Shown here in pieces: positions 17,110 through 53,568 of a stretch of 57,495 bases of DNA. This stretch comes from a virus (lineage: Duplodnaviria; Caudoviricetes), in the IMG/VR virus record IMGVR_UViG_3300007344_000034, positions 1 to 57,495 of that record; one strand, written 5' to 3'. Below the pieces are notes generated by a model. It searched no databases and was not told the DNA's origin. It saw only the letters and a program-made list of their open reading frames with translations. The position numbers and the translations under genes were made by a program. Every line of letters starts with the position of its first letter. Position 1 is the stretch's first letter.

Positions 17110-17161
17110 ACACACATCGAAGCAATCCCGCTTCGGTGTTCCATAAAAGAGGTAATCACTC

Positions 17162-18000: not shown

Positions 18001-18043
18001 GGACTCGTCCAATCAAGGACATAACTAAACAGGAGTTTCCAAA

Positions 18044-19147: not shown

Positions 19148-19189
19148 ATAAAAATGGGGCGAGATGTGTATGTACTCAGCACCCCATCT

Positions 19190-19207
19190 GCCTAACAAAT
19201 GTTAGTC
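19190..19207. repeat. 18-bp palindrome copy 4
   Basis: GCCTAACAAATGTTAGTC in the 5'UTR of 19236. Confidence 0.9.
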
Positions 19208-19235
19208 AGACCATTAACAATACGAGGTAACTAAT

Positions 19236-19736: not shown

Positions 19737-19977
19737 AATAAAGAAAATGAAGATATTAAAGAATGAAAAAGTTCCAACTCGCGGTTGGAGCAAGATTGAA
19801 AAGATAATTGATGGTATGGATTTCGATGATTGTGCGGAGTTTGATACCGAGCAAGAGGCGCAAGCCTTTTACTCAGCGGCCAAGCGATTGGTTTACCGCA
19901 AAAACAGCGAGTTTGACGTAGTGAAGAGACGCAAACGTGTATGGAAAGTAGCGAAGGAGTCAAACGATGAGGCATAA
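19729..19977 (+). CDS. Small hypothetical protein, possibly DNA-binding
   Basis: 82 aa, AGGAGG RBS, basic C-terminal KRRKRVWKV; loosely resembles 37485..37679. Confidence 0.65.
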   Translation: MSEIKKMKILKNEKVPTRGWSKIEKIIDGMDFDDCAEFDTEQEAQAFYSAAKRLVYRKNSEFDVVKRRKRVWKVAKESNDEA

Positions 19978-20589: not shown

Positions 20590-20728
20590 GCACAACCTAG
20601 TGCTTGATCGCCAGAAGGCGAAGGAGTTCATGCGTAAGCGTGAAGAATTGAAACAGAAGCGACTAACAAATGTTAGGGAGACCGACAATGGCAAAAATGT
20701 GGATAGCACCAGACGGGAGATGGAGTAG
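20567..20728 (+). CDS. Small basic hypothetical protein, 53 aa
   Basis: Not in ORF track. MHKSKPSKHNLVLDRQKAKEFMRKREELKQKRLTNVRETD...; AGGAG upstream; fills the gap between neighbours. Confidence 0.45.
   Translation: MHKSKPSKHNLVLDRQKAKEFMRKREELKQKRLTNVRETDNGKNVDSTRREME
20661..20678. repeat. 18-bp palindrome copy 6 (overlaps RBS/start of next gene)
   Basis: GACTAACAAATGTTAGGG. Confidence 0.85.
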
Positions 20729-21692: not shown

Positions 21693-21734
21693 ATACACAC
21701 TGGCGCGGAATGAAGCATTTAGCCAGTGGGGTCG

Positions 21735-21752
21735 CACTAACATTTGTTAGTC
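21735..21752. repeat. 18-bp palindrome copy 7
   Basis: CACTAACATTTGTTAGTC in the 5'UTR of the AAA ATPase. Confidence 0.9.
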
Positions 21753-21789
21753 AGACCATTAACAACTATTACATTAGAGGTAACTAAAA

Positions 21790-24199: not shown

Positions 24200-24438
24200 G
24201 GTTTCTATTCGAGATTGGCTACAAGTCATATGTACTTGATGCCGACCAAGCGCAGATTATCTGGGACACGATACGTGACGCGGAGATACATGAGGAGAAG
24301 CACGATGGATACGGAGATGATCGTACAACTACGTACCACGTGTACTCTCAAGATCTGTTGGGCGAACCTGTTCATATGAAGATGCTGACGGATCGTCAGT
24401 ACAACATGGCTAAGTTAGCCGGTAAACCAAAGAAGTAG
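24196..24438 (+). CDS. Hypothetical protein
   Basis: 80 aa, GGAGGA RBS, ATGA overlap. Confidence 0.7.
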   Translation: MRFLFEIGYKSYVLDADQAQIIWDTIRDAEIHEEKHDGYGDDRTTTYHVYSQDLLGEPVHMKMLTDRQYNMAKLAGKPKK

Positions 24439-24456
24439 GACTAACATTTGTTAGTC
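24439..24456. repeat. 18-bp palindrome copy 9
   Basis: GACTAACATTTGTTAGTC directly after the stop codon at 24438. Confidence 0.9.
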
Positions 24457-24484
24457 CGACCTACAACAATAGAGGTAACTAAAG

Positions 24485-26487: not shown

Positions 26488-26817
26488 ATGGCTACACCTG
26501 AGAAGAAAGTAAAAGATAAGATCGTTAAGGTTCTCAAAGACCAAGGCGTGTACTACTTCTTCCCCGCTACGCACGGGTACGGACGTAGTGGTGTGCCTGA
26601 TATAATATGCTGTTGCAACGGTGTCTTTATTGGCATCGAGTGCAAGGCAGGAGTCAACAAGCCAACTGCGCTACAAGAAAAAGAGATGCGAGATATACGC
26701 AACGCGGGCGGCATAACAAAAGTCATCAACGAAGATAATATCGTTGAGGTATTAGAGGTAATAACTTATGCACAAGAGTATGGAAATTCTCATGGCTCGT
26801 ATGGAGAGCCATCCTGA
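26488..26817 (+). CDS. VRR-NUC nuclease / Holliday junction resolvase
   Basis: TPEKKVK...GVPDII...FIGIECK...PTALQ; start moved to 26488. Confidence 0.88.
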   Translation: MATPEKKVKDKIVKVLKDQGVYYFFPATHGYGRSGVPDIICCCNGVFIGIECKAGVNKPTALQEKEMRDIRNAGGITKVINEDNIVEVLEVITYAQEYGNSHGSYGEPS

Positions 26818-29332: not shown

Positions 29333-29579
29333 ATTACCACCAGTTGAGCGTGATCCAATCATGCCGAACGGAATAACTATAGAGTGCGCGGCTAAGTGGC
29401 ACCTTTTTCTAGCGGAAGAATACGAGATGCTAGACGAAAGCGACAAAGCCAAAGCGCACCGTCAAAGGGGCGAAAGCCTAAACGCAATGCCGATGAAGGG
29501 ATCTGTATCTGATGCAGAACTGGAGACGGAAATAGCAATATGGACTGCAAAAAGAGGTAAGTCTAATGAAAGCAAATAA
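29325..29579 (+). CDS. Hypothetical protein
   Basis: 84 aa, GAGG RBS, overlaps both neighbours. Confidence 0.6.
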   Translation: MGKLPPVERDPIMPNGITIECAAKWHLFLAEEYEMLDESDKAKAHRQRGESLNAMPMKGSVSDAELETEIAIWTAKRGKSNESK

Positions 29580-30172: not shown

Positions 30173-30834
30173 CAACGTGGTCTTACAGCAGTCTCAAGAC
30201 ATTTGAGCAGTGCCCAAAGAAGTATTTCCATCTGAAGGTGGTGAAAGATGTCAAAGACTCAGGCAGTGAGGCTACGATATACGGTCAAGAAGTGCATAAA
30301 GTGGCGGAAGAATACATCAGAGATGGTGTAGAAATACCGAACAAATTCAAGTTCTTACAAGGAACTCTTGAGGCTCTTAACAAGATCGAAGGTGAACGTC
30401 ATTGCGAAATGAAGCTAGGACTGGCTTTGACCGATGACGATTACCGCCCTTGCGGGTTCTTTGATAAGGAAGTTTGGTGGCGGGGTATCGCTGACCTTGT
30501 GATTATTAAAGGAGATATAGCGTACTCTGTTGACTACAAGACCAGTAAAAATGCGAAGTACGCGGATACTAAACAGTTGGATATTGTAGCCGCCGCGCTT
30601 TTTGTGCATTTCCCACAGGTGCAGAAGATTAAATCAGGTCTAGCGTTTGTGGTTAGTAATGAATTTATTAAGAAGGATCATCACCGAGAAAAACGTGACG
30701 AATATTTTGCATCGTTTAATCCGCTTCTGGGTAGGTTAGAAGGTGCAATGGATAACGACGTTTGGAACGCGGTAACTGGTCCTTTGTGTAGGTTCTGTCC
30801 GGTTGTAACGTGTGAGCACAATAGCAAGAGGTAA
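30169..30834 (+). CDS. Cas4-like PD-(D/E)xK exonuclease with Fe-S cluster
   Basis: SYSSLKTFEQCP, G..VH, RGIADL, VDYKT, QL, C-terminal CRFC....C. Confidence 0.88.
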   Translation: MTTWSYSSLKTFEQCPKKYFHLKVVKDVKDSGSEATIYGQEVHKVAEEYIRDGVEIPNKFKFLQGTLEALNKIEGERHCEMKLGLALTDDDYRPCGFFDKEVWWRGIADLVIIKGDIAYSVDYKTSKNAKYADTKQLDIVAAALFVHFPQVQKIKSGLAFVVSNEFIKKDHHREKRDEYFASFNPLLGRLEGAMDNDVWNAVTGPLCRFCPVVTCEHNSKR

Positions 30835-30840
30835 CGAGAA

Positions 30841-31503: not shown

Positions 31504-33040
31504 AGTCTTAACCCTGCTAACACGTAATCCGCAGGCAATTACAGACGCAATTACAAAGAGCGCGATCCTAGAGGAACAAGAAGACGGTATATACAAAGTA
31601 GCAGTGAACTGGGGGCTGGATGAAATGCAGACTCTTGCTTCTCTGCCTTTTAAAACACCGCCGTCTACTATTAAACGCGACTACCAGTGGACAGGCAAGT
31701 TCACGCCGTTCGACCATCAAAAAGAAACAGCTTCATTCTTATCACTACATAAGAAGGCTTTCTGCTTCAACGAGCAGGGTACAGGTAAGACAGCATCAGT
31801 AATCTGGGCGGCTGACTACCTAATGAAGCAAGGGCGCATAAAGCGCGTGCTAGTGCTATGCCCGTTATCTATTATGAAGTCAGCATGGCAACAAGATCTG
31901 TTTAAATTTGCCATGCACCGTAGCTGTTCTGTTGCTTATGGTGACAAACGTGCCCGCAAGAAAATTATTGAAGCTGGCGCTGAGTTCGTAGTGATTAACT
32001 TTGATGGCCTCGGAGTAGTAAAAGAAACCATTATGGCTGGCGGCTTTGACATGGTTGTGGTTGATGAAGCTAGCGCCTATAAGAACCCGCAAACTAATCG
32101 TTGGAAGGTATTACGCGATGTGATGCTTAAAACTGAATGGCTGTGGATGCTCACAGGCACACCAGCCGCGCAGTCACCTTTAGACGCATATGGTCTAGCT
32201 AAGCTAATAAATCCTGTCCATTGCCCTAAGTTTTACGGGCAGTTCCGGGACGCTGTGATGTTTAAAGTGACTCAATTTAAGTGGGTGCCAAAGCCAAAGT
32301 CTCAAGACTATATACACAGACTGCTACAGCCCGCTATCCGGTTTGAGAAGGATCAATGTTTAGACCTACCTGAAGTTACGCACGTAGAGCGAGAAGCCCC
32401 GTTAACCACTCAACAGAAGAAGTATTACTTAGACCTCAAGAAAGAAATGATGATGGAGGCCGACGGGGAACAAGTAACCGCGTTCAATGCGGCGACTAAA
32501 ATAAACAAACTACTGCAAATATCTGGCGGCTGTGTGTATACCGATACCCGTGAAGTTATTGAGTTTGATGTGTCTAATAGGCTAAATGTAATCGAGGAAG
32601 TTATCAATGAGTCGTCACACAAGGTGCTTGTCTTCGTTCCCTTTACGCACACAATTGAGTTACTACGCGCTCATCTTGAGAATAAAAATCATTCATGCGC
32701 TGTTATTAACGGCAAAGTTTCTGTCAACAAACGGAGCGATATTGTTAAAGATTTTCAAGAACAGCCCACGCCTCGTGTTCTTATTATCCAACCGCAAGCC
32801 GCGTCGCATGGACTCACTCTGACTGCGGCAAACACAATCATCTGGTATGCACCAGTGACCAGTGTTGAGACTTATTTGCAAGCCAATGCGCGTATCAACC
32901 GTCCCGGACAGAAGAACGCGATGACAATCGTGCACATACAGGGCAGTGAAGTAGAAGACAAACTGTACAACATGCTTAGAAACAACATCAGCAACCACGA
33001 GAAGATCATTGATTTATACCGTCAAGAATTAAGTTCTTGA
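31484..33040 (+). CDS. SNF2-family helicase
   Basis: EQGTGKT, VVDEAS, LTGTP, HGLTLT, QANARINRPGQ. Confidence 0.93.
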   Translation: MEVVENKVLTLLTRNPQAITDAITKSAILEEQEDGIYKVAVNWGLDEMQTLASLPFKTPPSTIKRDYQWTGKFTPFDHQKETASFLSLHKKAFCFNEQGTGKTASVIWAADYLMKQGRIKRVLVLCPLSIMKSAWQQDLFKFAMHRSCSVAYGDKRARKKIIEAGAEFVVINFDGLGVVKETIMAGGFDMVVVDEASAYKNPQTNRWKVLRDVMLKTEWLWMLTGTPAAQSPLDAYGLAKLINPVHCPKFYGQFRDAVMFKVTQFKWVPKPKSQDYIHRLLQPAIRFEKDQCLDLPEVTHVEREAPLTTQQKKYYLDLKKEMMMEADGEQVTAFNAATKINKLLQISGGCVYTDTREVIEFDVSNRLNVIEEVINESSHKVLVFVPFTHTIELLRAHLENKNHSCAVINGKVSVNKRSDIVKDFQEQPTPRVLIIQPQAASHGLTLTAANTIIWYAPVTSVETYLQANARINRPGQKNAMTIVHIQGSEVEDKLYNMLRNNISNHEKIIDLYRQELSS

Positions 33041-33064
33041 CAAAGTCAAAAACAACACTATAGT
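33037..33064 (+). promoter_or_regulatory. Sigma70 promoter for the SSB/primase block
   Basis: TTGACA-16 bp-TATAGT. Confidence 0.7.
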
Positions 33065-33096
33065 TGTTAATGGAGTCAACCAAAGAGGTAATAACT

Positions 33097-33495
33097 ATGG
33101 CAACACCAGCCGATAAATTAGTGCCTGTGTACATTAAGATCCGCGATTCTATTCGTGAGAAAGAAGACAAGCACAAGCTAGAGATAGCTACGCTCAAAGA
33201 GCAATTGGAAGCTGTGGCTCAAGCCTTACTAGAAATATGTGAGGAGAATGGGCAGGATGGCTTCCGCACACCCGAAGGCACAGTCACTCGTAGAGTTACG
33301 TCACGGTATTGGACGAGTGACTGGGAGGCTATGTACAAGACAATTAAGGAACACGATGCTCCTTTTTTGCTTGAACAAAGAATCCACAACGGCAACATGA
33401 AGCAATTTCTCGAAGAACACCCAGATGTTCACCCAACGGGGTTGCAAGCTGACCGCAAATATACCGTGCAAGTACGTAAACCAACTTCTAAGTGA
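33097..33495 (+). CDS. Conserved coiled-coil replication-module protein
   Basis: Start ATG 33097 behind AGAGGTAAT; YIKIRD...RTPEGTV...DW...LLEQRI. Confidence 0.75.
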   Translation: MATPADKLVPVYIKIRDSIREKEDKHKLEIATLKEQLEAVAQALLEICEENGQDGFRTPEGTVTRRVTSRYWTSDWEAMYKTIKEHDAPFLLEQRIHNGNMKQFLEEHPDVHPTGLQADRKYTVQVRKPTSK

Positions 33496-33503
33496 GGTAC
33501 ACA

Positions 33504-34409
33504 ATGAGCAATCAAGTCTCAATTTTTGAAAACAATACTGGCGTAACAGTATCAACTCCACGTAAGGGTGCATTGGGCGATGTGTTCGCTCCAGCCCCTA
33601 CAGTCCCTAATACTCGTCGTATACAGGCGCGTAACAATGGTGACTTTGTTCGGTATATTAACGGGCAACAAGCTGGGGATTCTGTGCGCGACGCGCTAAA
33701 TGTAATCATCGTAGGGGCGCTTAAAGAAATATCCCGTGAATACTACAGCTCAGCTTTCGATCCGGATAGTCCATCACTACCAGATTGTTGGGCTAATCAA
33801 GGTGATTCCCCAGAAGATGGCTGTAGTAACCCGCAAGCAAGCTCCTGCGCCTCCTGCCCTCAAAATATAAAAGGCTCAGGCGGCGGTGAGCGTCGTGCAT
33901 GTAAGTTCCAACGCCGGATTGCTGTGATGGTTGAGGGTGACCCCAAAGGCACTGTGTATCAACTAAAAATCCCCGGTGGTTCTTTGTTCGGCAAGGGCAC
34001 TGGTAACACACACCCGTTTGAGAGCTACACTAAGTTTCTTGCTGGTAACGGAGAATCTCCAGACACAGTTGTAACGCAGATACTGCACGACCCTAACAAT
34101 ACGGGGCAGACCTACGTGCTAAAGTTTAAGCCGATCCGTCAGGTATCGGATGAAGAGTACGAGCTAGTCCTTGCGGCACAGAAGAACCCCGATACAGAAA
34201 TGTATACGAAAATCACTACAGCGCAGACAGATCAAGTCACTGCTTTGCCGCCTAGTGCTCCGGAACAGTCCGCATTTGTTGAAGAGCCAGAGGAAGAGCC
34301 AGTAGTAGAAGAAGCGAAGCCAGCTAAGCGTCAGGCTAAAAAAGCTGAACCTAAACCAGAAAACAGCAAACTCGCTGATGTATTGAGTACATGGGGCGAT
34401 GAAGGCTAA
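33504..34409 (+). CDS. Putative ssDNA-binding/annealing protein with Zn site
   Basis: Start ATG 33504; PDCW, CASCPQNIKGSG, RACKF; acidic/Lys tail ending in W-acidic residues. Confidence 0.7.
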   Translation: MSNQVSIFENNTGVTVSTPRKGALGDVFAPAPTVPNTRRIQARNNGDFVRYINGQQAGDSVRDALNVIIVGALKEISREYYSSAFDPDSPSLPDCWANQGDSPEDGCSNPQASSCASCPQNIKGSGGGERRACKFQRRIAVMVEGDPKGTVYQLKIPGGSLFGKGTGNTHPFESYTKFLAGNGESPDTVVTQILHDPNNTGQTYVLKFKPIRQVSDEEYELVLAAQKNPDTEMYTKITTAQTDQVTALPPSAPEQSAFVEEPEEEPVVEEAKPAKRQAKKAEPKPENSKLADVLSTWGDEG

Positions 34410-34645
34410 TGAGCTATGGCTACAGCAATAGGCTTATCGAGCTGAATAAAAAAGCTGATGGCAACTCGCTGGGCGTACAACTGGGGCGGCTCTGCATCGA
34501 ACGCGATGTACCCGTCTCGGACGTAGCAGTCCATCTAGGTGTAACACGGCAAACTGTATACAACTGGTTCTGTGGGGCTAACGCTCCACGTGCCAAGTTA
34601 CTACAGATAAAAGAAATAATAAGCTCACTAGCCGCTGACAAATAA
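34409..34645 (+). CDS. XRE/Cro-like HTH regulator
   Basis: VSDVAVHLGVTRQTVYNWFCG. Confidence 0.85.
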   Translation: MSYGYSNRLIELNKKADGNSLGVQLGRLCIERDVPVSDVAVHLGVTRQTVYNWFCGANAPRAKLLQIKEIISSLAADK

Positions 34646-34669
34646 AATTACACAGCAAGGGATTTAGGG

Positions 34670-37504
34670 ATGACATTCGACCTACTACGCTCAGTGCAGC
34701 CTGAAGAAGGCTGGTTCTGCGCTTTCGGTATAAAGGGGAGTAGCATTGTACAAAAACTTGTACAAACCCGCGAAGAGCTAGACGAAATATCAGAACAGTT
34801 TGTGGCTGATAAATATAATGCTTTCTTTGCGGTAGCTAAGTTTCAAACAGACGTAGACCGGAAAAAAGATAATGTACGGGCTTTAAAAGCCTTCTGGTTG
34901 GACATTGATTGTGGTCCTACCAAGGCAGAGGTTAACAAGAAAACAGGCCGCCCTGACGGCTATATAGATCAAGATGCTGGGCTAGCGGCGTTAGAAGAGT
35001 TTCGTGAGTTAGTTGGACTTCCTGAACCTATACTCGTTAACTCTGGCCGTGGTATCCACGTTTATTGGGCACTGACTGAAGAAGTAACCAGAGAGCAGTG
35101 GGAGCCAGTCGCACACCGCCTACGTGAGCTGTGCTTTACGCATGAGCTATATGTAGACTCTGCGGTGTTTGAAGTTGCGCGTGTACTTAGGGTGCCCGGT
35201 ACGTATAACTTTAAAGATGATCCAGCTAAGCCAGTATCTGTAATTCAAGAAGCTAATGCTATAGATTTCAATGAGTTACGAGACATACTTGGTGTAGAAG
35301 ATAAAGTTGAGACCGCACCAAAACGTGAGTTAACTGCGCTAGGCCAGCAGTTTGCGGATTCAGCAACTAACAGCTTCAAAAAGATTTTAGAGCGTAGCGC
35401 TAAAGGCAACGGGTGCCCGCAGATACTAGCCTGTTACGAAGAACAGCAAACGCTAGCGGAACCTAGATGGTTCAATGCGTTATCAATAGCTAAGTTCTGC
35501 AAGGACTCGTCCAAAGCGATACACGTACTGTCTTCTGAATACCCCGGTTACAACTATAATGAAGTAGAACACAAGATACAGCACATAGTTGGGCCACATA
35601 CTTGCGAAAAGTTTGAAGCGAATAACCCCGGTGGGTGCGACGATTGTCCGTTCAAAGGCCAGATTAAAAGTCCTATCGTGCTTGGCCGTGAGATAGAACG
35701 TGCCTCCGAAGCGGACAGTATAATTTCTTATGAAGAAGACGGTGTAGCGGAAGTATACAAAATACCAGAATACCCGTTTCCATTTTTCCGTGGTAAAGGC
35801 GGCGGTATATGGCATCAGTCTGATAGCGATGAAGTCGAGCCTACTCTGGTGTACGAGCACGACTTGTATCTGCTCAAACGTATGAAAGACCCTGTTAAGA
35901 AAGATGTCGCCGTGTTTAAACTGCACACTCCGCATGACGGTATCATTGAATTTATTATTCCAAATTACCAACTAACAGAACCTAGAGAAGTCAGAAAGCT
36001 ATTGGCGGAACAAGGCGTACTGTGCGGGAACACTAAAAAAAGTGAGTTACTGAGTTGGTACATCATTGCATCTGTACGCGAGATGCAAACACGAGAGAAG
36101 GCGGAGAAGATGAGATTACAGTTTGGATGGGCTGATAATGACAGCAAATTTATTATTGGGGATAGGGAGATAACTCCAGACGGTGTGTTTCACACGCCTC
36201 CGTCTCCGTCAATGGAATCGTTTGTGGAGAATATGCAGAAGGCCGGTTCATTTGACAAATGGAAAGAGATCTTTGCGATATACAGTCGAAAAGGACTAGA
36301 GCCGCAAGCGTTCGCCACACTTAGTGCTTTCGGTGCGCCGATTTTCAAATACACAGGCCAGCAAGGGGCTTTGATTAGCTTAGTAGCAGAAGGCTCTGGC
36401 GATGGTAAATCTACAGTGTTGTACATGCAGAACAGCGTATGGGGGCACCCAAGGGCTTTAACTGCGCTCAAAGAAGACACAATGAACGCCAAGTTTATGC
36501 GCTTAGGTATCCATAACAATCTACCTGTAACGATGGACGAAATGACTGAGTGTGCTCCGCAAGAAGTGTCGCACCTAGCTTATGGTGTATCACAAGGTAA
36601 AGGTAAGGAGCGTATGAAGCAGTCAGGTAACGAGCTACGTAAGAACCTGACCAGTTGGTGTACTTTGGTAACGACTTCTGCAAATAGCTCTTTCTACGAA
36701 TCTCTTGCGTCTGTTAAGAACCGCCCGGAAGCGGAAATGATGCGGATCATAGAATATAAGATACCGACCGACGAAGAGATCAAGAACGACGTAGCTTTGA
36801 AGTTTATGTTTGATACAGATCTACTAGAAAACTACGGTCACGCTGGCGACATATACGCCGAATACCTTGTGAATAACTTAGAAGAAGTAAAAGAAGCTGT
36901 TCGGTCAATCCAAATGCGTGCGGATAGGCAGTTTAAAATTACACAGAAGGAACGTTTTTGGTCCGCGATCATCGCAGCAAACATAACAGGCGGCATAATT
37001 GCTAGGCGGTTAGGGCTTATCAACTGGGATATACAACGTATATATCAGTGGTGCGGTTCAGTAATGCTTCCAGAACTACGTGAGGATGTACGCACACCAG
37101 TTGACGACAGCGTAGCGACCGTTGGTGATTTTATTAACCGGCATATGCAAAACATTTTGGTAGTGAATGATGAGGTGGATTCTCGTTCCAACATGCCGAC
37201 CCTGCCTCTCATGGAGCCTAGAGGCAATCTTCTTATACGGTACGAGCCTGACACCAAATTGATGTACATATCTGCTAAGGCGTTCAAAGAGGACTGTGTT
37301 AAGTACCGCTTGAACTACAAAGGCGTCCTTAAAGACCTTACTAAAAAGGGCATACTGAAAGATACGATATACAAGCGTATGTCTAAAGGCATGAAAGTAT
37401 CTTCTCCGGCTACGCGAGCAATGCTACTAGATTGCGATAATAGCGAGTTCTTAGATGTAGAGAGCATGTTTGAGGAGTCGGTAAATGCTGGTGGAGAAAG
37501 TTAG
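34670..37504 (+). CDS. Primase-helicase (AEP-like primase, Cys-cluster domain, DUF927 helicase)
   Basis: WLDID, NSGRGIHVYW, RVLRVPGT; GPHTC...CDDCP; Walker A GSGDGKST; Walker B MDEM. Confidence 0.88.
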   Translation: MTFDLLRSVQPEEGWFCAFGIKGSSIVQKLVQTREELDEISEQFVADKYNAFFAVAKFQTDVDRKKDNVRALKAFWLDIDCGPTKAEVNKKTGRPDGYIDQDAGLAALEEFRELVGLPEPILVNSGRGIHVYWALTEEVTREQWEPVAHRLRELCFTHELYVDSAVFEVARVLRVPGTYNFKDDPAKPVSVIQEANAIDFNELRDILGVEDKVETAPKRELTALGQQFADSATNSFKKILERSAKGNGCPQILACYEEQQTLAEPRWFNALSIAKFCKDSSKAIHVLSSEYPGYNYNEVEHKIQHIVGPHTCEKFEANNPGGCDDCPFKGQIKSPIVLGREIERASEADSIISYEEDGVAEVYKIPEYPFPFFRGKGGGIWHQSDSDEVEPTLVYEHDLYLLKRMKDPVKKDVAVFKLHTPHDGIIEFIIPNYQLTEPREVRKLLAEQGVLCGNTKKSELLSWYIIASVREMQTREKAEKMRLQFGWADNDSKFIIGDREITPDGVFHTPPSPSMESFVENMQKAGSFDKWKEIFAIYSRKGLEPQAFATLSAFGAPIFKYTGQQGALISLVAEGSGDGKSTVLYMQNSVWGHPRALTALKEDTMNAKFMRLGIHNNLPVTMDEMTECAPQEVSHLAYGVSQGKGKERMKQSGNELRKNLTSWCTLVTTSANSSFYESLASVKNRPEAEMMRIIEYKIPTDEEIKNDVALKFMFDTDLLENYGHAGDIYAEYLVNNLEEVKEAVRSIQMRADRQFKITQKERFWSAIIAANITGGIIARRLGLINWDIQRIYQWCGSVMLPELREDVRTPVDDSVATVGDFINRHMQNILVVNDEVDSRSNMPTLPLMEPRGNLLIRYEPDTKLMYISAKAFKEDCVKYRLNYKGVLKDLTKKGILKDTIYKRMSKGMKVSSPATRAMLLDCDNSEFLDVESMFEESVNAGGES

Positions 37505-37679
37505 CTACGATGTTAACTGGCGTAATTTTAAACGAGGGTATTCGTTTTTTATACCCTGTTTAGACCCAAAGTCGGCACGAGATGAAATAAAAGCGGTCAC
37601 TAACCGCTTTAAATACAAGATTTTAACAAAAGTCGTTATCGAAGAAGGAGTTAGGGGTTTACGTGTGTGGCGGCTTTAG
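37485..37679 (+). CDS. Small conserved protein, possibly DNA-binding
   Basis: VNWRNFKRGYSFFIPC...GVRGLRVWRL; GAGGAG RBS. Confidence 0.75.
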   Translation: MLVEKVSYDVNWRNFKRGYSFFIPCLDPKSARDEIKAVTNRFKYKILTKVVIEEGVRGLRVWRL

Positions 37680-37692
37680 TATACAGTTTACT

Positions 37693-37787
37693 CACGAAAC
37701 TTGAGGCAGTGTTCACTGTTGCTTTTTCGTGGTTACCTCTAAGGGTTGACTCCCTAAGCTGTGCCCCGCCTTGTGCGGGGTTTTTTT
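37693..37787 (+). ncRNA. Candidate trans-acting anti-RBS small RNA (~95 nt)
   Basis: Promoter-like TTTACG-18-TACAGT (37658-37687); 5' stem CACGAAA/TTTCGTG; unpaired GTTACCTCT; hairpin AGGG-TTGACT-CCCT; terminator. Seed is complementary to the RBS of plus-strand genes. Confidence 0.65.
37764..37787 (+). terminator. Rho-independent terminator at the convergence point
   Basis: CCCCGC-CTTGT-GCGGGG followed by T7, overlapping the stop codon of 37786..45021. Confidence 0.88.
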
Positions 37788-40700
37788 AATAGAACGAATA
37801 GTCCATACGACTCATGTTAATGGCGTCCCGCATTATTGGACTAATAGATACCCCATCAAACATTTCTGCAGAAGCCTTAATATGCTGCTTCATTGATTTA
37901 TCTAAGGTCTCCCCATCTATCGCTGCGTATGGATGCCGGTCGTTGTAGTCTAGTATTTCGTCTATAGCATCTGACATAGCGTCTAGATCCCCCGCACGAG
38001 CCGCGATGTAATACTTACGTAACAGCTTAGTACGTGTTGTGGTAACGGCTTTTTCTATGCGCTTATCCCGCAAATTACGTTCTTGCCGCGCTGTGTATTC
38101 AGCAGGTGGGAAGCCAAGAAGCTGAGCAGCTAGTTCACCGTGCGTCATGTCAGCATAAATGGGGTCGCCCCGACGAGTATATATACCGTCATCTTTTTGG
38201 TAACGCCCTATGGGCATAGCTTTGTAAGCATTTGATATAGCAGCGGGTAGCATATTTTCTATACCGCGTTCGATATTGCCCTCTTGGAGATCAGCCACCC
38301 CACGTGCGAACCGCTTACCCACACTTAGAGCAGGGCCACCCAGATAGAACAATAAATTTTCTTCTGGAGACGCATTAGTGTTGTATCTATTCTCTTGGAT
38401 AACAAGTCCTGTTAGCCGTACGCGACTAGCTACATCAAGCCCAGTAAGTTCGTTTAGTGGGCCTTTGAAATAAAATTCACCTATAGCTTTACGCACTACG
38501 GTGTCAAAATCATCTTCGTCTTCGTCAGCAAATGTGTTGTACGCAAGTGCTATGGCTCCGTATATAGGGATACCGTATACCCCTGCAAACAAAGCTGCCG
38601 ATCCATGCAAACCTACCAATTGCTTAAACGCCACGTTACGTTTTCGTTTAGTTTCCGCATCGGAACCCGGATACATGCCTTTCAGTAGGTCGCGTAAGGC
38701 CATAAACATCGTGGTATACATACGCACGCCGAAGCCTTTGTACATACCCGCTACACGCCCCACGTTTTGATTTGTATAACGCATGCCGGTTTCGATGACA
38801 GTTCCACCGTTAACCATTTGAGTTTTTTCGATAGCTTCTTCAATAGCTCGTTTTTTCACTACAGAGTCAGCCAGTTTACGATCTGCGGGACGAGCGTCGT
38901 TTAATTTCTTCTGGCGTTCAATAGCCATTTGATAAATAGCCATCAGCGTAACTTGACGGTTAAATCTTTCGCCGTGGTTGAACATAAACGCACTGAGTCC
39001 GGTAATCGTATCCAGTAGGTTCTTCTGCTCCCCCAGTGCTATAACGTCTGCTATGTAAGTCTGGTTTAACAAACCACGCCCGGAGGCTTCTTGAACTACA
39101 GGCGCTAGTTCCTCTAACAGCGCTCTCTGCCTAGCATCGGTTACAGTATCCATTACTGCAAAGTTACCTTGCTCATCTAGGGTGTAGTAGCTTTCTATAT
39201 TGTTTTTGAACACCCCTACTTGGTTCATAGCCTTACGTATAGCACCATATGCATTAGTGTATCCGTAGTCTGCCCCCAGATAAGGGAATGCAAACAACGG
39301 CACTTGTGACATATTCACCAAATAAGAAGACACGTTAAACCCGATAGTGAATAAGAAAGCGGACTGGTTAAGAGTCTTAGCTATTTCTTCTGCGCCCTTA
39401 AATCTTGCGCCTTCTCTAGCAAAGTTAATACGATCATTAAGCTCTCGGGTTACAACCCGTATAGAATCGTGATACTTTCTTTGCGCTCTTCTAGGGTTAC
39501 GTGACCCCGCTATTTCGATCATGCGCTGCATATACTCTACGGTAAGATTATTAGCCCGAGCTATGTCGTACAACGTAGAATTAGGGTTTCTTTCTATTAA
39601 GGCTTGCACTTGTTGATAAGTAGGTAGCGCAAAATTGTTTATAGTATTTTGATAAGCATTTAGCTCTTTAACCGCTTGCATACGCACGACTTGGCGCCCG
39701 AACTCAAAGGCGCGATTTTTAAGCGCTAGCAGTGAATTTGCTTCATAACCTAGTGTTCCCTTACGTTTTTGTAAGGACCGCGCAATAGCTGTTTGCGGTA
39801 GAGCATTTACAAATGTACGCAATACCTGTTCGCGCAAAGCTCTACCAGCCTCACCGCTGGTCTCTGGGTTGTTATTTAACGCTGTAAGCAAGGCGTTAAC
39901 AAAAGAAGATGGTGGGGACTCTTTAGCTACTTGCTCCATAGACCCAGAATCATCGGTACTAAAGGACTCGTTAATCACCGTTGGGTCGTTTGAAAGCTCT
40001 AATATAGCTCGTTCACGTTGTTTGTCAGTTTCAAAAAACCTTACAACATAGGGTTCCACACCTCTTTCGACTGAATTAGGGTCTAGATTGTAGGAAAGCA
40101 TGAACTTACCTACACGTTCTAATGGAAAGTAAACTTCTAACGTGTCTTGCTCGGCTAGTAACCTACTTATGAGCGTCTGCCGTACGCTAGCATCTTGGTC
40201 ACCGGGCATTATGTCTTTGAAAGTGGCTTGTATTATTTCCAACATTGATTTGCGTTGGTCAGAATAAAACTTGCGTAACCGGTTAAACATCTGTTGTCCG
40301 TTTACACCGCCTTTACCTACATCTCTGCCTATTTGATTCCATACTCGTTGCAAGTCATCCCATACATCGCCTAAATCTGTTACGTCATCCTTTGCCAGTT
40401 TCCCAGCATATTCAGACCTAGGTTTATTGGGGTCTATTTGGAAGATAGTTGCGCCAAATTCGCTGCTGTAAACAACAGCGTTAAATCTAGCTTCCGCCTG
40501 TGGGCCTACAGAATCAAACCACTCAGCAAGATTATCTACTTCGTCCTGAACTGCTTGATCTGATTTAACAAGCCTAGCGCGTTGAGTTTCAATGGAGCGC
40601 TGTACTTTAAACCCGGTCCTACCCATACCAAGCGCTTCGTATATTTGACTAACTGTAAGTAAATCAGCGGCACCAAGTAGTGTGCGTTGAGCAAACAGTC

Positions 40701-43700
40701 TAAAAGGCGAGCCCAAGAAACTAAGTATTTTATCAAGTAAGGACGCACGGTCTTTCTCAGATGCTTTCCTGCGCTGGTTAATCGCCATGTGTTTAAAGAT
40801 TTTTTTAACGCCACCACGATCACTGTTTAAGTACGCTGGAGCACCGCTTGCAGAATACGGAGCGGGGTCAATTATTGAGTCAATTAAGGTGTCTATTTCC
40901 GCTACTGTGGCTTCTGATCCTTTAGGTTCCAGCCCCATAACTCTACGTAATAGATTACGTATAGCTCGTATTATTTCTCTAGCCGCAGAAACCCGCTGTC
41001 CTTTAGCTGTAAGTCGCGCTACTTCTTTTCTAAACTCAACGTTGGATTTGAACTCAGCCACAAACTCTTCTAAAGATTGTGCGCCATAAGCGGTGCTTAG
41101 ACGGTTTTTCAAGCTGTCATATATAGTCCGTAGCCGCTTAACATGAATACTACCGGGCTTATTACGTATGGTGTCTAAGGTAATAGCATGGCCCATCTCA
41201 TGCATGATTGCATGAGCGGTAACACCCTCATCTGGGTTAATGCTAATAGTATTGGTGGTAGGATCAAATTTACCCGGTACAGGCTTGCCTTTAGCGTCAA
41301 CTAGCCCCGGAGTTAATTGTATTTTTGTAGTCCCTACATTCTCCATAAATTTACGGATTGTGCGGGCAAGCATTTTATTTGGTGTGCTTTGTTGCAACAA
41401 ATCTAACGTAAGCCTTAGATCTCCAGCTTTCAATGCTTGATACACGCTTGGGGGCACAAGCGCCTCAGATGCCATCAAAGCGTTGTATTCCAAATACACT
41501 TCAATTCCGTTGTCTGCTAATACGTCTTCAATAGCTTCAAAGTCATCATCAATAGGGCCAAACGTATCTCTAGCCTCTTTAATTAGCTGGTCCGTTTGTT
41601 CATCGGAAAACGCAGCTACGTCAATTTCGCCATCTCTCTTCTGTTGCTCTAGCTCTTTTATGACATCTTCTTCTTTTATTAAATCAATCTCTGAGGCTTC
41701 TACACGCTCGGCTCGGCTTAGAGGTTGGCCGTCTTTAGCCTCTACTTTTTTATACCGCCCCAGTGCACGTTGCTCTCTTATTACGTCTCGTATTTCATCA
41801 GTCTCAAAAGCGCGGGTAATAGCTAAGTCGCCGCCGTATATAGTAACCACATCAGCAAAAGAAGGCTCCCCTGCTAGCTTAACGGTGTCGTTAAGCACGA
41901 TAGCTACAGCCAAATCATTGAGTCCTTCCAAGAAGCCACCACGAGCTAGCTGGCTAGTAAGCAAGTTTTTACGTTCGTTCTTGCTAGCTACTGGAGTTTT
42001 AGCGCCTAGTTGCTTACGTAAGTTTTCAGTTTCTTTATTAAGCTCAACTACTCCTTCTGCTGCTAGCCTAGCGTCTTCTATACGACGCTGTTCCACATGA
42101 TCTACAGCTTCTGCTGCTGCGTTAGGCTTAATAAACGCATCAGGGTCCATATTCATGTTGTTGTAAGCAGCGAGAATAGTTAGGCGGCTGCGACGCCATG
42201 CCGCTAAACGCTCAGAAAGTAGGTTCCTAACTTCTTTACTTCCGTATTGGCGTAAATACTTAGCAGCGGCGAGTGCTGTGGGCCGATGGTATAGCCCTCT
42301 GTTAATTTCTCGCGCTTCAAAATACTGTTCACTTTCGCCTAATTCTCTACGCGCTTGATCCTGTAATTTTTGAGATATTTTACCTTCAGGTTTTCCAAGG
42401 TGCTCCCTTACCTGCGCTAAGCTAATTGTTGGTTGGGCTACCTGATCGGTGTATACGGGAGCAGGAGCTTTACCTTCTTCATATTTTACTTTCTTACTTA
42501 ACGGATAAACTATGTCGTATGCGATGTAGTTAATTACATCTTCAGGACGATCTGACTTAGACGCATAGATACGCAGAGCATTGTAAGGATTTAACTTAGC
42601 ATCGTTAGCGTCTGGGTAACCGCCGTTTCTTGCGTTGTCTATTACTTCTGTGTCTGCTTCTGATAGGGCATCGGGGACTACATTTGCGTTTTCTAGCTGT
42701 TCAGATTTATCTTTGCCTAACGCTTTTTGTTCGGCGCGTAGCCGATTCGCTATTTCGTTAGTACGTTTTAAGCTAGCGCCGCTTTGAGAAAGCCTTTCTT
42801 GTTGCCCTTCTCTAGCTTCAGTTTGTAAAACATCTAAATCTTGCGTAGCGTTATCAAGCGCAACTTTTTCTGCGGACTCTTGTAAATAGCTAGCCGCTTC
42901 ACTATCTAGTTGTTCAGGAGTAAGGCTGGGTTGTAGTCTTTGTATTAAACGTCTGGCTTCTCTGGCAGCGGTGTTGTATTTACTCGCCGCCACTTGTTTT
43001 TTCTGACGAGCGTAGCTAACAAGCCCCTCAATGTTGGCTATACGTTGATTTTCCGGAGTAGTCTCTTCTTCCGGCGCTAGACCTAATGCGGCTTTTTCCG
43101 CGTTTGGGTCAGTAGTGTCTTTAAACTTAATTTTAGACGCTTTAGCTTTTTCTTCTGCTTGCAGTTCTTTAAACTCAGGACTGTTAACAACGTCATCCAG
43201 CTCGCCTTCCCGCGCTAGATTATCAACCACATTCTGTTCTAGCAGTGCCTGCGCTTCTTCAACAGTTTGGCCAGTTTCTTCTGCATATTCAGCAAGTTTT
43301 TTAGGATCGTTTAGCAGTTCGCGGCGTTTGTCTTGCTCTTCTTTTACACTCTGCTGCTCAGCTAACACTCCACGAGCAGTTTGAGTACGAGTCGTTTCTA
43401 CCGTAGTCTCACCTTCTGGCGTAGTCCGCTCAATTGTAGTTTCAGTAGTTTTTGGTTGCTCTCGCTGTGCTTCAGCGTCTTGTTCCTGTTGTGAACGCTC
43501 TTGCTCAAGCAACGCTTCTAAATCGGAAACCCTCGCTGCTTCTTCCGCTGTCTTTTCTGCTGTTATTTTTTTCTCAGCTTCTTTTGTTCGCACTCTCGCT
43601 TCTTCTACGCCCGCGATAGCGTTGTCAAGTTTTGCCTTTAACTCAGGCTGCGCTTCAGCTACCTGTAGCTCCGCTTCTTCAGGAGACAAATTTTGGTCAA

Positions 43701-45021
43701 CAACTAACTCACTTATGCGAGCGTTATACTCTGCTTGGGTAGCATCTAGTAAAGCATCCGCACTATCCGCGTCTTGTTTAGCGGCTCCCACTTCTGCATC
43801 GGCCACGGTGGACTCAGGGCGGAGTTTTGCAAGCATTTCTTCTGCTGTCGTTTGCCCCGCTGGCGGTGCCTCTGGTTCAGCTTCAGTTGTGGTAGCTCCT
43901 TCAGGGCGAAGTCTAGCTAGTAGCTCTTCTGCCGCAACCTCTCCGGGGCCACGATCATCAACTACAGGAGCTGGTTCTGCAGGTGGTGTGGATGGCGGGG
44001 GTGTAGTAGGAGTTTCGGGGCCACGAGGTATACCGGCTATACCACCAAGCGGCGCGGCAGCGAAACCTTCCATAGAGGCTTGAGCCGCTACACCTGCACC
44101 TAAATCAACATCAAACCCTTCACGTTGCAATGCAAGATTCTGTGCAAATTTTTCTTGCCCAGCCTGAATAGATTCAGGAATTGCTTCTGCGACCGTGCCT
44201 TTTGCTAGGCGTGCTGCTATGTTACCGGACAGTTTTTTTACTAAAATTCTTTCGAGCGGCCCTACTGCGGCACCTGCGCCAAGGAGCGTACCCAAAAGAA
44301 TTTGGTCTATGTTTTCGCCACCATAAGCCTGTGCTTGTTCTGCTGCGGCGGCAGCGCGTTCAGGGTCCACCCCTTCTTTTAATAACTCACTTTCTACAGC
44401 GTCATACACGCCACCTTTTACAATACCTGCTCCAGTTACAGCACCGAGCCCAACAAGCGCGGGTGTCCCTAGTAAGCTAGTTGCAATAAAAGGTATGGCG
44501 CTACCGCCAGCTTGCGAAATAATTCCACTAGGATCTGCGGCTACCGCTTGTAAACCCGCGATAAGCTCTTCTTTAATCCCTTTACCTTCTGCATCCGCGA
44601 TGATCTGTGCGGCGCGTTCGGCGTCAGCTTGCCCTTCGGCGGATAGTAAAGCGGCTAAATGCTTATCCGCTCGCTTCATAAATTTAGATGCGTCGCTACT
44701 AGCACCACCAAATGCGTCAATAGCTGCGTCAACTATGGTTAAAGTTCCCCGCTGAACTCCTATACCAATATCCGCTAATGATTCACCAAAAGAAGCATCG
44801 GACTCTTGTACCCGTCTAAATTCATCCTGCGCGGCTTTAGTTCTTGCTTCAGCAGCGGCTAGGTTTTCCTGCATCTGCTGATCTATGGGATCTACAGAAT
44901 CAGTTGCGGGCGCAGACAATTGTTGATTAAGTAAAGCAGCTAACTGAGCATCAGTAGCACCTTCGGGGCCTTCTACATCAAACTTACGTCCGTCTTTTAA
45001 CGCTAATTCGTAGATTGGCAT
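37786..45021 (-). CDS. Large polyvalent ejection/internal virion protein (zincin HEMGH, PLxRFG-like region)
   Basis: 2411 aa, last late gene; hydrophobic Gly/Ala N-region; GKFDP...HEMGH...EEFVAE zincin; YFPLERVGKF. Confidence 0.8.
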   Translation of the reverse strand: MPIYELALKDGRKFDVEGPEGATDAQLAALLNQQLSAPATDSVDPIDQQMQENLAAAEARTKAAQDEFRRVQESDASFGESLADIGIGVQRGTLTIVDAAIDAFGGASSDASKFMKRADKHLAALLSAEGQADAERAAQIIADAEGKGIKEELIAGLQAVAADPSGIISQAGGSAIPFIATSLLGTPALVGLGAVTGAGIVKGGVYDAVESELLKEGVDPERAAAAAEQAQAYGGENIDQILLGTLLGAGAAVGPLERILVKKLSGNIAARLAKGTVAEAIPESIQAGQEKFAQNLALQREGFDVDLGAGVAAQASMEGFAAAPLGGIAGIPRGPETPTTPPPSTPPAEPAPVVDDRGPGEVAAEELLARLRPEGATTTEAEPEAPPAGQTTAEEMLAKLRPESTVADAEVGAAKQDADSADALLDATQAEYNARISELVVDQNLSPEEAELQVAEAQPELKAKLDNAIAGVEEARVRTKEAEKKITAEKTAEEAARVSDLEALLEQERSQQEQDAEAQREQPKTTETTIERTTPEGETTVETTRTQTARGVLAEQQSVKEEQDKRRELLNDPKKLAEYAEETGQTVEEAQALLEQNVVDNLAREGELDDVVNSPEFKELQAEEKAKASKIKFKDTTDPNAEKAALGLAPEEETTPENQRIANIEGLVSYARQKKQVAASKYNTAAREARRLIQRLQPSLTPEQLDSEAASYLQESAEKVALDNATQDLDVLQTEAREGQQERLSQSGASLKRTNEIANRLRAEQKALGKDKSEQLENANVVPDALSEADTEVIDNARNGGYPDANDAKLNPYNALRIYASKSDRPEDVINYIAYDIVYPLSKKVKYEEGKAPAPVYTDQVAQPTISLAQVREHLGKPEGKISQKLQDQARRELGESEQYFEAREINRGLYHRPTALAAAKYLRQYGSKEVRNLLSERLAAWRRSRLTILAAYNNMNMDPDAFIKPNAAAEAVDHVEQRRIEDARLAAEGVVELNKETENLRKQLGAKTPVASKNERKNLLTSQLARGGFLEGLNDLAVAIVLNDTVKLAGEPSFADVVTIYGGDLAITRAFETDEIRDVIREQRALGRYKKVEAKDGQPLSRAERVEASEIDLIKEEDVIKELEQQKRDGEIDVAAFSDEQTDQLIKEARDTFGPIDDDFEAIEDVLADNGIEVYLEYNALMASEALVPPSVYQALKAGDLRLTLDLLQQSTPNKMLARTIRKFMENVGTTKIQLTPGLVDAKGKPVPGKFDPTTNTISINPDEGVTAHAIMHEMGHAITLDTIRNKPGSIHVKRLRTIYDSLKNRLSTAYGAQSLEEFVAEFKSNVEFRKEVARLTAKGQRVSAAREIIRAIRNLLRRVMGLEPKGSEATVAEIDTLIDSIIDPAPYSASGAPAYLNSDRGGVKKIFKHMAINQRRKASEKDRASLLDKILSFLGSPFRLFAQRTLLGAADLLTVSQIYEALGMGRTGFKVQRSIETQRARLVKSDQAVQDEVDNLAEWFDSVGPQAEARFNAVVYSSEFGATIFQIDPNKPRSEYAGKLAKDDVTDLGDVWDDLQRVWNQIGRDVGKGGVNGQQMFNRLRKFYSDQRKSMLEIIQATFKDIMPGDQDASVRQTLISRLLAEQDTLEVYFPLERVGKFMLSYNLDPNSVERGVEPYVVRFFETDKQRERAILELSNDPTVINESFSTDDSGSMEQVAKESPPSSFVNALLTALNNNPETSGEAGRALREQVLRTFVNALPQTAIARSLQKRKGTLGYEANSLLALKNRAFEFGRQVVRMQAVKELNAYQNTINNFALPTYQQVQALIERNPNSTLYDIARANNLTVEYMQRMIEIAGSRNPRRAQRKYHDSIRVVTRELNDRINFAREGARFKGAEEIAKTLNQSAFLFTIGFNVSSYLVNMSQVPLFAFPYLGADYGYTNAYGAIRKAMNQVGVFKNNIESYYTLDEQGNFAVMDTVTDARQRALLEELAPVVQEASGRGLLNQTYIADVIALGEQKNLLDTITGLSAFMFNHGERFNRQVTLMAIYQMAIERQKKLNDARPADRKLADSVVKKRAIEEAIEKTQMVNGGTVIETGMRYTNQNVGRVAGMYKGFGVRMYTTMFMALRDLLKGMYPGSDAETKRKRNVAFKQLVGLHGSAALFAGVYGIPIYGAIALAYNTFADEDEDDFDTVVRKAIGEFYFKGPLNELTGLDVASRVRLTGLVIQENRYNTNASPEENLLFYLGGPALSVGKRFARGVADLQEGNIERGIENMLPAAISNAYKAMPIGRYQKDDGIYTRRGDPIYADMTHGELAAQLLGFPPAEYTARQERNLRDKRIEKAVTTTRTKLLRKYYIAARAGDLDAMSDAIDEILDYNDRHPYAAIDGETLDKSMKQHIKASAEMFDGVSISPIMRDAINMSRMDYSFY

Positions 45022-53121: not shown

Positions 53122-53568
53122 TTATGCAACGTTCTTCATGCGCTCACACAGGCGGCCCGCTCGGTTAGGTACTTGATTGTACCACTTGCTATCCGCCATC
53201 TGGATAGCAGCTTCTGCCCAATCGCGTGCGTCTACCGCTGTCTTCATCATCTTAAACTGACTCAAACGTGGACGGCCCATGTTAAACATCATGTTGGCGA
53301 TAATTAGCTGTACTTCTTCTGGTAGGTCATCCCAGTCATCATAGAGCTTCTTGCACTCACCGATAGTGATCTGCACATCCTGCTCAAACACTTCTACTAC
53401 ACGGGCCTCGTCTACAGGAGTACCGACTTCTTGCCCGTTCTCTGGATCATCTTCAGTAACTAAATGCCCAATACCAAACGTAGGCAGTCCAAGGTGATCT
53501 AGGTAAATTTCATACTTGCAGCCTTCGTCGTACTCCAGCTCCATGCGTAGTTGGTCGATATTCATCAT
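53122..53568 (-). CDS. Endolysin, T4-lysozyme-like (GH24)
   Basis: DEG......YLDHLGLPTFGIGH catalytic E/D/T spacing; NMMFNMG; SKWYNQVPNRA. Confidence 0.92.
   Translation of the reverse strand: MMNIDQLRMELEYDEGCKYEIYLDHLGLPTFGIGHLVTEDDPENGQEVGTPVDEARVVEVFEQDVQITIGECKKLYDDWDDLPEEVQLIIANMMFNMGRPRLSQFKMMKTAVDARDWAEAAIQMADSKWYNQVPNRAGRLCERMKNVA

Follow-up and report, generated by a model that had tools for sequence, protein, structure and literature searches.

A putative antisense RNA at the 3' end of a phage primase operon complements early ribosome-binding sites

Few phage regulatory RNAs have known targets, and in the cited part of PMC12197685 most of these act on a single immunity gene or on host genes. 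We identified a putative antisense RNA element in a 57.5-kb virus record from IMG/VR (Duplodnaviria; Caudoviricetes; IMGVR_UViG_3300007344_000034, positions 1 to 57,495, the whole stretch of DNA analyzed, hereafter the window). The element lies on the plus strand, in the gap between the end of a primase operon and a converging late gene, and contains bases complementary to an extended ribosome-binding site (RBS) that precedes a subset of the early and middle genes.

In its working the element would be most like OppZ and CarZ of Vibrio cholerae, small RNAs (sRNAs) derived from 3' untranslated regions (UTRs) that, in the passages cited, pair with the transcripts of their own operons and inhibit translation (PMC7398697). 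The likeness lies in the position at an operon's 3' end with a shared terminator, the complement to the initiation region of the same operon, and the negative feedback to be expected from it. The own-operon pairing that characterizes OppZ and CarZ is seen here as complementarity only. Unlike the sRNAs described in those passages, the present element is phage-encoded, it is complementary to about ten further RBSs in other early operons, and it may have a separate promoter.

A phage-encoded structured RNA whose loop sequences pair around an RBS and block translation is found in the c4 antisense RNA of phages P1 and P7 (PMC12197685, in the part cited). However, c4 has one immunity target (ant), whereas the present element is complementary to many replication-module genes in an apparently lytic-type genome. 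In T4, according to the cited passages of PMC3014915, the RegB endoribonuclease and the RegA repressor down-regulate early messenger RNAs (mRNAs) through their initiation regions. The strong RegB sites consist of a Shine-Dalgarno (SD) sequence with a 3' extension (GG*AGRAYARAA), and the mRNA of RegB is itself among those it acts on (PMC3014915). This analogy is functional only, as RegA and RegB are proteins and the reader of the extended site described here would be a co-evolving RNA. Finally, ncRNA1 and ncRNA2 of Pseudomonas phage PAK_P3 were detected experimentally and come from the upstream gene's 3' UTR, as the cited part of PMC10914365 reports, which names no targets for them. The present element shares with them a probable origin as a virulent-phage small RNA from a 3' UTR; it has predicted targets, and it is known from sequence alone. 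A full-text literature search found no phage RNA antisense to a shared RBS of the phage's own early genes, with subscription journals and supplements (for example the non-coding RNA tables of PMC10914365) outside its scope. Antisense pairing at an RBS is itself known; the present element would differ from the known systems in its many targets and in their shared, private RBS word.

A conserved structured RNA at the end of the primase operon

The window, for which CheckV estimates 92% completeness, consists of a plus-strand arm at about 16.1-37.7 kb that carries the replication genes, including a family-A DNA polymerase, an SNF2 helicase and a DUF927 primase (34670-37504), and a minus-strand late arm that makes up the remainder and encodes the terminase, the portal and a 2411-amino-acid (aa) DarB-like giant protein (37786-45021). 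The primase operon runs from a gene for a 132-aa protein (start at 33097) through the primase gene to a basic 64-aa open reading frame (ORF; plus strand, 37485-37679) that forms its end. A gap of 106 nucleotides (nt; 37680-37785) separates the stop codon of this ORF from that of the converging 2411-aa ORF. The element begins 1-14 nt past the stop of the operon's last ORF and ends at the sole plus-strand terminator before the converging gene.

All parts of the element are read on the plus strand. The 5' stem-loop (37693-37731), which pairs CACGAAA (37693-37699) with TTTCGTG (37725-37731) around a variable apex in the minimum free energy fold, is confined to one clade of relatives (clade A, below). 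Directly 3' of it is the segment GTTACCTCT (37732-37740), and TGGTTACCTCTAA (37730-37742) forms a first seed, antisense to the RBS word AGAGGTAA(C). The second hairpin (37742-37757) consists of AGGG (37742-37745), the loop TTGACT and CCCT (37752-37755). It holds seeds 2 and 3 (GGTTGACTCC and CTCCCTAA), which complement GGAGTCAA (19956), GGAGTCAACC (33072) and TTAGGGAG (20673). An intrinsic terminator, GCCCCGC-CTTGT-GCGGGGT (37763-37781; seven pairs, six of them G-C), is followed by a run of seven U residues (37781-37787) that extends into the converging late gene's stop codon. This layout had been proposed in an earlier note on the window, and each motif was found where it had been placed. The fold also came out as it had described, the 98-nt plus-strand RNA reaching -33.1 kcal/mol.

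A search of IMG/VR with the primase yielded 30 loci with 46-85% amino-acid identity, 26 of which reach beyond the primase gene. Gene order is identical in these 26: the primase is followed by an ORF of 64-71 aa that overlaps its end, then by a gap of 72-118 nt and the converging giant gene. The hairpin before the plus-strand terminator bears the reverse complement of the clade's own early word, made up of SD sequence plus spacer, in 24 of the 26 gaps.

Clade A comprises the window and its four closest relatives (L002, L003, L005 and L004). Among these five sequences the seed core TTACCTCT is invariant, the AGGG-TTGACT-CCCT hairpin and the terminator are nearly unchanged, and the apex of the 5' stem diverges freely. 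The stem itself shows a compensatory change in L004 (CACGAAT/ATTCGTG) and wobble pairs in L003 (U-G) and L005 (G-U). A variant contig from an estuary metagenome (run X8) spans 37609-37787. The only insertions listed there, +A behind 37713 and +TG behind 37723, both fall in the variable loop of the 5' stem, and none falls in the seed among the differences listed (144 more are unlisted).

The more distant relatives (clades B and C) have neither the 5' stem nor the GGUUACCUCU segment. With the exception of L012 and L016, which show other forms, they carry a hairpin described by G(A/G)(G/A)AG-UU(U)GCUC-CU(C/U)(U/C)C, followed by the terminator. The second hairpin of the window is the counterpart of this family-wide hairpin. 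The unpaired GTTACCTCT that the earlier note had singled out is present, but it is a clade-specific addition, and the family-wide element consists of the hairpin and terminator that follow it.

A covariance model built from 11 clade-C sequences finds clade B at E-values of 1.6e-8 to 2e-4 and L016 at 2.8e-6; clade A is matched weakly (window 37735-37789, 16.1 bits, E 0.2). We tested the structure on 17 sequences with a hand-given structure and realignment to the model, and the alignment therefore leans towards the model. In it, 97.8% of the cells are paired, and seven of the 16 pairs show changes on both sides. None of 500 shuffles reached the covariation score, and sliding the partner by 1-3 columns gave 46-60% paired cells. 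Sixteen wobble cells in this alignment would be mismatches on the other strand. The relatives' equivalent terminators have four compensatory pairs and 14 U-G or G-U cells that would be mismatched on the other strand, and in them as in the window the terminator has its U-run on the plus strand only. The wobble cells and the U-run fit the plus strand only and so identify the element as an RNA structure of the early (plus) strand; its conservation and its strand are directly observed. RNAalifold applied to the raw MAFFT alignment, in which the 5' arm of the hairpin is misaligned, recovered the terminator only.

A pattern describing the clade-C hairpin and the start of the terminator matches at least 100 IMG/VR stretches. 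Among 80 matches examined, the end of a small ORF lies at most 260 nt upstream in 72 and a terminator lies downstream in 75; judged by these matches, the element family is large. Two further hits of the covariance model (L050 6841-6903 and L055 13487-13560) were rejected as other hairpin-terminator sites without the family seed. The L055 site (about 53487-53560 in the whole record, G005), matched at E 0.01, follows an early-strand gene and has the CU-rich CCUCCGCCUCCGCCUC ahead of its terminator.

None of the Rfam 15 covariance models, that of c4 included, matches the window at its gathering score. The best sub-threshold match, MmgR/suhB (RF00519; plus strand, 37728-37795), reaches 21.8 bits against a gathering score of 41, and L002 reaches 24.7 bits. 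GUU..CUCCCUA and the terminator are aligned in this match. However, the scores are far below 41, the first hairpin of the model is unmatched, and the clade B and C elements L011, L015 and L019 have no match. The likeness is a resemblance of layout in clade A only, not membership.

Complementarity to early ribosome-binding sites and its co-variation

The word AGAGGTAA occurs ten times on the plus strand of the window (16418, 17148, 21161, 21776, 24471, 26754, 29553, 30827, 33084 and 51577) and once on the minus strand; this last copy is the one in the gap, where it forms the sole plus-strand reverse complement in the record. The copies at 21161 and 51577 are intragenic, and eight plus-strand copies stand 4-8 nt ahead of plus-arm start codons. 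All copies cited in the earlier note are present, including GAGGTAAC at 19224, the intragenic copy at 21161 and AAGGTAAG ahead of the ATG at 54619, an exception on the late arm. The copy at 16418 is also present, but it lies 13 nt before the ATG at 16437, farther than the other copies.

Complementarity over the SD sequence and spacer extends for 8-13 contiguous nt at ten of 30 early starts. All targets are on the plus strand. They begin with AGAGGTAACCA (16418-16428) before a membrane-like small ORF, AGAGGTAA (17148-17155) before a 216-aa gene (start at 17162) and GAGGTAAC (19224-19231) before a 92-aa gene (start at 19236). The complements of seeds 2 and 3, GGAGTCAA (19956-19963) and TTAGGGAG (20673-20680), precede genes of 61 aa (start at 19967) and 323 aa (start at 20688). 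Further downstream are TTAGAGGTAAC (21774-21784) before a 354-aa ATPase of PHROG 1297 (start at 21790), TAGAGGTAAC (24470-24479) before a 283-aa protein (start at 24485), and TTAGAGGTAA (26752-26761) before a 107-aa protein (start at 26768) encoded directly upstream of the DNA polymerase gene. AGAGGTAA (29553-29560) and AGAGGTAAC (30827-30835) then precede genes of 147 aa (start at 29566) and 122 aa (start at 30841). The leader of the primase operon (33037-33099), which ends at the start of the 132-aa gene, combines a promoter, TTGACA-16-TATAGT, with the two-site target GGAGTCAACC-aa-AGAGGTAA facing GGUUACCUCU-aag-GGUUGACUCC of the element. This is the longest match, with a duplex energy of -32.2 kcal/mol compared with -13.7 to -23.9 kcal/mol at the other ten sites.

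On heuristic gene calls, GAGGTAA stands ahead of eight of 30 early-arm starts and none of 40 late-arm starts, the bias between arms that the earlier note had predicted. Contiguous complementarity, used in place of duplex energy for target counts, gave a similar picture: complements of at least 8 nt to 37693-37762 precede ten of 30 early and two of 40 late starts (Fisher one-sided p = 0.0024), and none of 2000 shuffled RNAs reached ten early targets. Both the complementarity and its restriction to early genes are seen directly. The informative part of the complement is a spacer extension of 3-5 nt (GUAAC, CAAC, CAAAC or CGAA), for which 16S pairing fails to account and which changes in step with the loop.

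We compared the words in the 22 nt before early-arm starts in six records, the window (G000) and the whole records of five relatives (G001-G005). The commonest early word is AGAGGTAA in the window (seven of 30 starts), G001 (five of 32) and G002 (four of 36). In G003 the words are AGGAGCAA and GGAGCAAC (three of 31 starts each), in G004 AGGAGCAA (9/29) and GGAGCAAA(C) (7/29), and in G005 AGGAGCAA, GGAGCAAA and GAGCAAAC (3/17 each). The late arms of the same records use TAAGGAG-type words. Among the relatives the gap loop UUACCUCU is paired with the early RBS word AGAGGUAA, UUGCUCC with GGAGCAAC, and UUUGCUCC with GGAGCAAA; a fourth variant, L006, has the loop UUCGCUCC and the RBSs GGAGCGAA/GGAGCGA before two primase-operon genes. 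The reverse complement of a record's early word occurs in one or two copies on its early strand, one of them always in the gap. Co-variation of seed and RBS, which the earlier note had set in advance as a test of the idea, was thus positive in four sequence variants.

RNAs and starts were also exchanged between clades. Within their own clade, clade-A RNAs match 6-10 of 30-36 early starts. They match 0-2 of 40-63 late starts, and none of the 31 early starts in G003 or the 29 in G004. The RNAs of clades B and C match 9-14 of the 29 early starts in G004 and none of 30 in the window. The contrast between early and late starts is found in all six records (Fisher p 0.0016-0.024), the count being equaled by 0-8 of 2000 shuffled RNAs. 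Orthologues keep their status as targets while the word changes, for instance the ATPase of 354-360 aa, the protein of 283-285 aa and the gene that opens the primase operon. The leader of this last-named gene, the operon's first, complements its own gap by at least 8 nt in 21 of 23 genomes, the exceptions being L012 and L016, and the complement averages 9.2, 9.5 and 10.7 nt within clades A, B and C compared with 5.4-6.6 nt between A and B/C. The co-variation across clades is directly visible in these comparisons, and on such sequence evidence the antisense-RNA idea is strongly supported. The element is very probably a conserved plus-strand RNA selected to complement early RBSs, and the earlier note's central proposal, a structured element exposing bases antisense to a phage-private SD-plus-spacer word on early and middle genes, stands.

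Two of the relatives show unusual arrangements. In L016 (8030-8147 and 3400-3445) the target leader keeps AAGGAGCAAGCC behind a consensus promoter, and the gap hairpin reads GAGAG-TTTAGGCTTGGATT-CTC, with broken complementarity of about 6+4 nt; this element may be decaying or retargeted. At 27109, 27135, 34034 and 34061 of G003 (L045-L048), two copies of GGAGCAAC near the beginning of the early arm have no start codon after them, and the RBS and first codons are tandemly duplicated 27 nt apart.

Neighboring features and distribution

All relatives have the 64-aa protein in conserved form (18 columns are invariant among 13 sequences), and its AlphaFold2 model is a confident beta-alpha-beta-beta fold with a predicted local distance difference test score (pLDDT) of 87.7. 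It has no Pfam or PHROG match, and a Foldseek comparison of the model with the PDB gave a best E-value of 0.27; RNA-binding proteins among the weak top rows were not counted as evidence. The protein always adjoins the RNA element and could be a partner protein. For the first protein of the operon (132 aa) we found only a sub-cutoff match to DUF7307 and PHROG 13900 ("minor head protein"), and the label of a single-stranded DNA-binding-like protein considered for it was dropped as unsupported by these matches.

Other sequences in the early arm are repeated as well. A palindromic block, ACTAACAwwTGTTAGT, followed by CAGACC-ttAACAA stands at 19185-19222, 21730-21772 and 24435-24468, ahead of three AGAGGTAAC sites. 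The likeness of these three RBSs may come partly from a repeated, operator-like leader cassette. A promoter-like repeat of about 37 bp, GCAGAATCGTAyTTmTGTAyCACAAwTAGAGAyAAT, has three copies (16351-16390, 17073-17112 and 17964-18003), each ending in a GATAAT/GACAAT -10-like box and lacking a TTGACA-like -35. By contrast, consensus sigma-70 promoters are found at 21664 (TTGACA-17-TACAAT) and 33037 (the operon promoter given above).

No transfer RNA or transfer-messenger RNA gene was found in the window, and a blastn search of a phage collection with 37300-38100 gave no match. The nearest named phage by protein is Pseudomonas phage Rollin, whose primase is 29% identical; its converging genes overlap, and there is no gap element in that phage. 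DNA nearly identical to 33000-39000 is present in freshwater, estuary and marine metagenome runs: 20 of 24 listed rows, which span 16 studies, hold at least half of the sampled words, and six of the 24 are possible sources of the record itself. Judged by these matches, the phage or its close kin recurs in freshwater, estuarine and marine waters.

Proposed mode of action and alternatives

We propose that the element acts as a 3'-end antisense RNA that occludes early RBSs, exerting feedback on its own operon in the manner of OppZ and CarZ together with a wider regulon, or serving as a brake. To this reading, which rests on comparative sequence, we assign a probability of roughly 0.6. A plus-strand RNA of about 60-95 nt, ending at the terminator (37787), would correspond to the 3' end of the operon of the 132-aa gene, the primase gene and the 64-aa ORF. 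The parts exposed between its 5' stem and the terminator would be GGUUACCUCUAA and, in the loop and arm of the hairpin, UUGACUCCCUAA. Their reverse complement is the SD-plus-spacer word, which stands before roughly one quarter to one third of early and middle genes and not before late ones. Pairing over mRNA positions of about -14 to -3 would block 30S binding and perhaps trigger decay. The strongest target would be the leader of the RNA's own operon, giving negative feedback or a delayed brake on translation of the replication module, and feedback is the simplest circuit because the RNA sits at the 3' end of its strongest target's operon. A clade-C RNA (the L028 form) would repress leaders with AGGAGCAAAC and not those with AGAGGTAA, and a clade-A RNA would do the reverse. 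Accumulation of the RNA, its pairing in vivo and repression by that pairing are what we infer from these features.

The RNA could be produced by processing of the operon 3' UTR, from a weak promoter within the 64-aa ORF, or by both routes. The candidate promoter combines a -35-like TTTACG (37658-37663, plus strand; four of six consensus positions) in the last codons of the 64-aa ORF (R-G-L-R) with a putative -10 sequence, TATACA/TACAGT (37680-37687; TACAGT at 37682-37687, with an 18-nt spacer to TTTACG), just past the ORF stop. Among 77 distinct sequences, AGGGGTTTA over the -35-like bases shows synonymous-site constraint: the third-position entropy of AGG, GGT and TTA is 0.49, 0.75 and 0.62 bits, and the other sense codons of the last 24, except the invariant TGG, range from 1.19 to 1.99 bits. 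Because third-position entropy is low at these codons, we conclude from the aligned sequences that a nucleotide-level element overlaps this part of the ORF. The constraint fits a weak or specialized promoter and is not proof of one, and processing of the operon 3' UTR is equally possible.

Several observations weigh against RBS occlusion by such an RNA. The sequence TTTACG-18-TACAGT is where the earlier note had placed its promoter, but it agrees with the consensus at only eight of 12 positions, and a promoter scan that requires nine did not list it; most relatives have a TAnnnN hexamer after the stop codon, usually one without the T that ends the sigma-70 consensus. The eight contigs from a metatranscriptome run (X24) fall at 33368-36435 and 38606-38824 and leave the gap uncovered, although contigs cannot show transcript ends and these cover a small share of the window, which makes them uninformative on transcription of the gap. 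Fold energy alone cannot choose the strand because the opposite strand folds about as well, and the z-scores are modest on both (-2.6 for the plus strand, -2.9 for the other). Half of the seed in clades B and C is formed by the hairpin's 3' arm, and the stem must therefore open before the RNA can pair. In L012 the complement between leader and gap is 7 nt with Watson-Crick pairs only and 10 nt with one G-U pair, and in L016 the leader keeps a C-type RBS but the gap has no matching seed (7 nt).

The target counts have weak points of their own. Gene starts come from crude ORFs and a generic SD-score heuristic, which weakens the counts, and the GGAG/GAGG core of the complement is trivial in that any CU-rich RNA would match it. 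The loose duplex energy of the seed segment has a median of -14.6 kcal/mol at early and -12.9 kcal/mol at late starts (Mann-Whitney p = 0.09), and a swap matrix of duplex energies gave no discrimination among clades or arms. The word stands ahead of only eight to ten of the 30-37 plus-arm starts, which does not bear out the earlier note's view of it as a general tag of early and middle mRNAs. It marks a subset of early genes and not the whole class: ordinary AGGAG/GGAGG serves the remaining early starts, and even the genes for the polymerase, helicase and primase are without the word at their starts.

This last point bears on the circuit that the earlier note had proposed, a stand-alone sRNA that has a promoter of its own, represses early and middle genes as a whole class and drives a global early-to-late switch. 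Such a switch would have the same complementarity and co-variation as RBS-occluding feedback, and the synonymous constraint at AGGGGTTTA and the hexamer of most relatives speak for an own promoter. However, the promoter match falls short of the scan, only a quarter to a third of early starts bear the word, and the replication enzymes named above do not. The element is also made from the early arm and not from the late arm, and nothing links it to late times. The claim of a global switch was overstated: that the element finds its best target in its own operon's leader fits feedback at least as well, and we regard the switch as unlikely.

It is also rather improbable that the hairpin-terminator RNA is real and has another role, whether 3'-end protection, the binding of a protein such as the 64-aa protein, activation or stabilization of its targets, or, on the minus strand, that of a sense RBS decoy. 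The conserved structure and the conserved basic small ORF that always adjoins it would suit a non-repressive role. However, a stabilizer or protein site would not predict a loop that tracks the early RBS word through four variants, and the fold of the 64-aa protein matched nothing significant (E 0.27 at best). Duplexes that cover an SD sequence are also usually inhibitory. As for a decoy, late transcripts may run on across the gap, since the minus strand has no U-run at the terminator, but the G-U pairs favor a plus-strand RNA and the minus-strand copy in the gap has no start codon behind it. A small minus-strand ORF behind this RBS-like copy was considered and rejected, as neither the window nor the relatives have a start codon suitably spaced from it.

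It is highly improbable that a phage regulator recognizes the word as a site in double-stranded DNA, placed in the opposite orientation in the gap. With 5-10 copies per record, restricted to the early arm, the word is distributed as such a site might be, but it keeps a fixed SD distance (2-8 nt) from starts, including those of operon-internal genes 0.3-1.2 kb apart in G004, and its copy in the gap adjoins the terminator and lies within a hairpin whose stem shows compensatory changes. An ordinary 3' UTR and terminator with a chance match to the RBS word, already disfavored, is likewise most improbable: chance would give an 8-mer about 0.9 occurrences per strand in 57 kb, compared with the one minus-strand copy observed, the z-score of the fold is modest and no Rfam family reaches its gathering score, but each of the six complete records has its single copy in the gap, although three different words are involved, the gap word is invariant where its flanks diverge, and 0-8 of 2000 shuffles match the target count.

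Beyond feedback by RBS occlusion, it is possible, though we hold this only tentatively, that the element reads a private translational regulon in which about one third of the early and middle genes are tagged by SD and spacer and read by one co-evolving RNA, an RNA equivalent of T4 RegA/RegB. If so, such a regulon would set the level and duration of replication-module expression in widespread uncultured freshwater and estuarine phages. The host ribosome would have no need of the tag, and tag and reader would change in parallel from clade to clade, leaving related phages mutually orthogonal. Comparative sequence alone yields a defined RNA, a defined multi-gene set of phage targets and natural compensatory "experiments" across clades. 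The several naturally orthogonal pairs of seed and RBS may be usable as translational control parts and could be tested in synthetic reporters without the host. If the proposal is correct, lytic-type phages are able, by means of one RNA and a private extension of the ribosome site, to regulate a block of early genes together at the post-transcriptional level.

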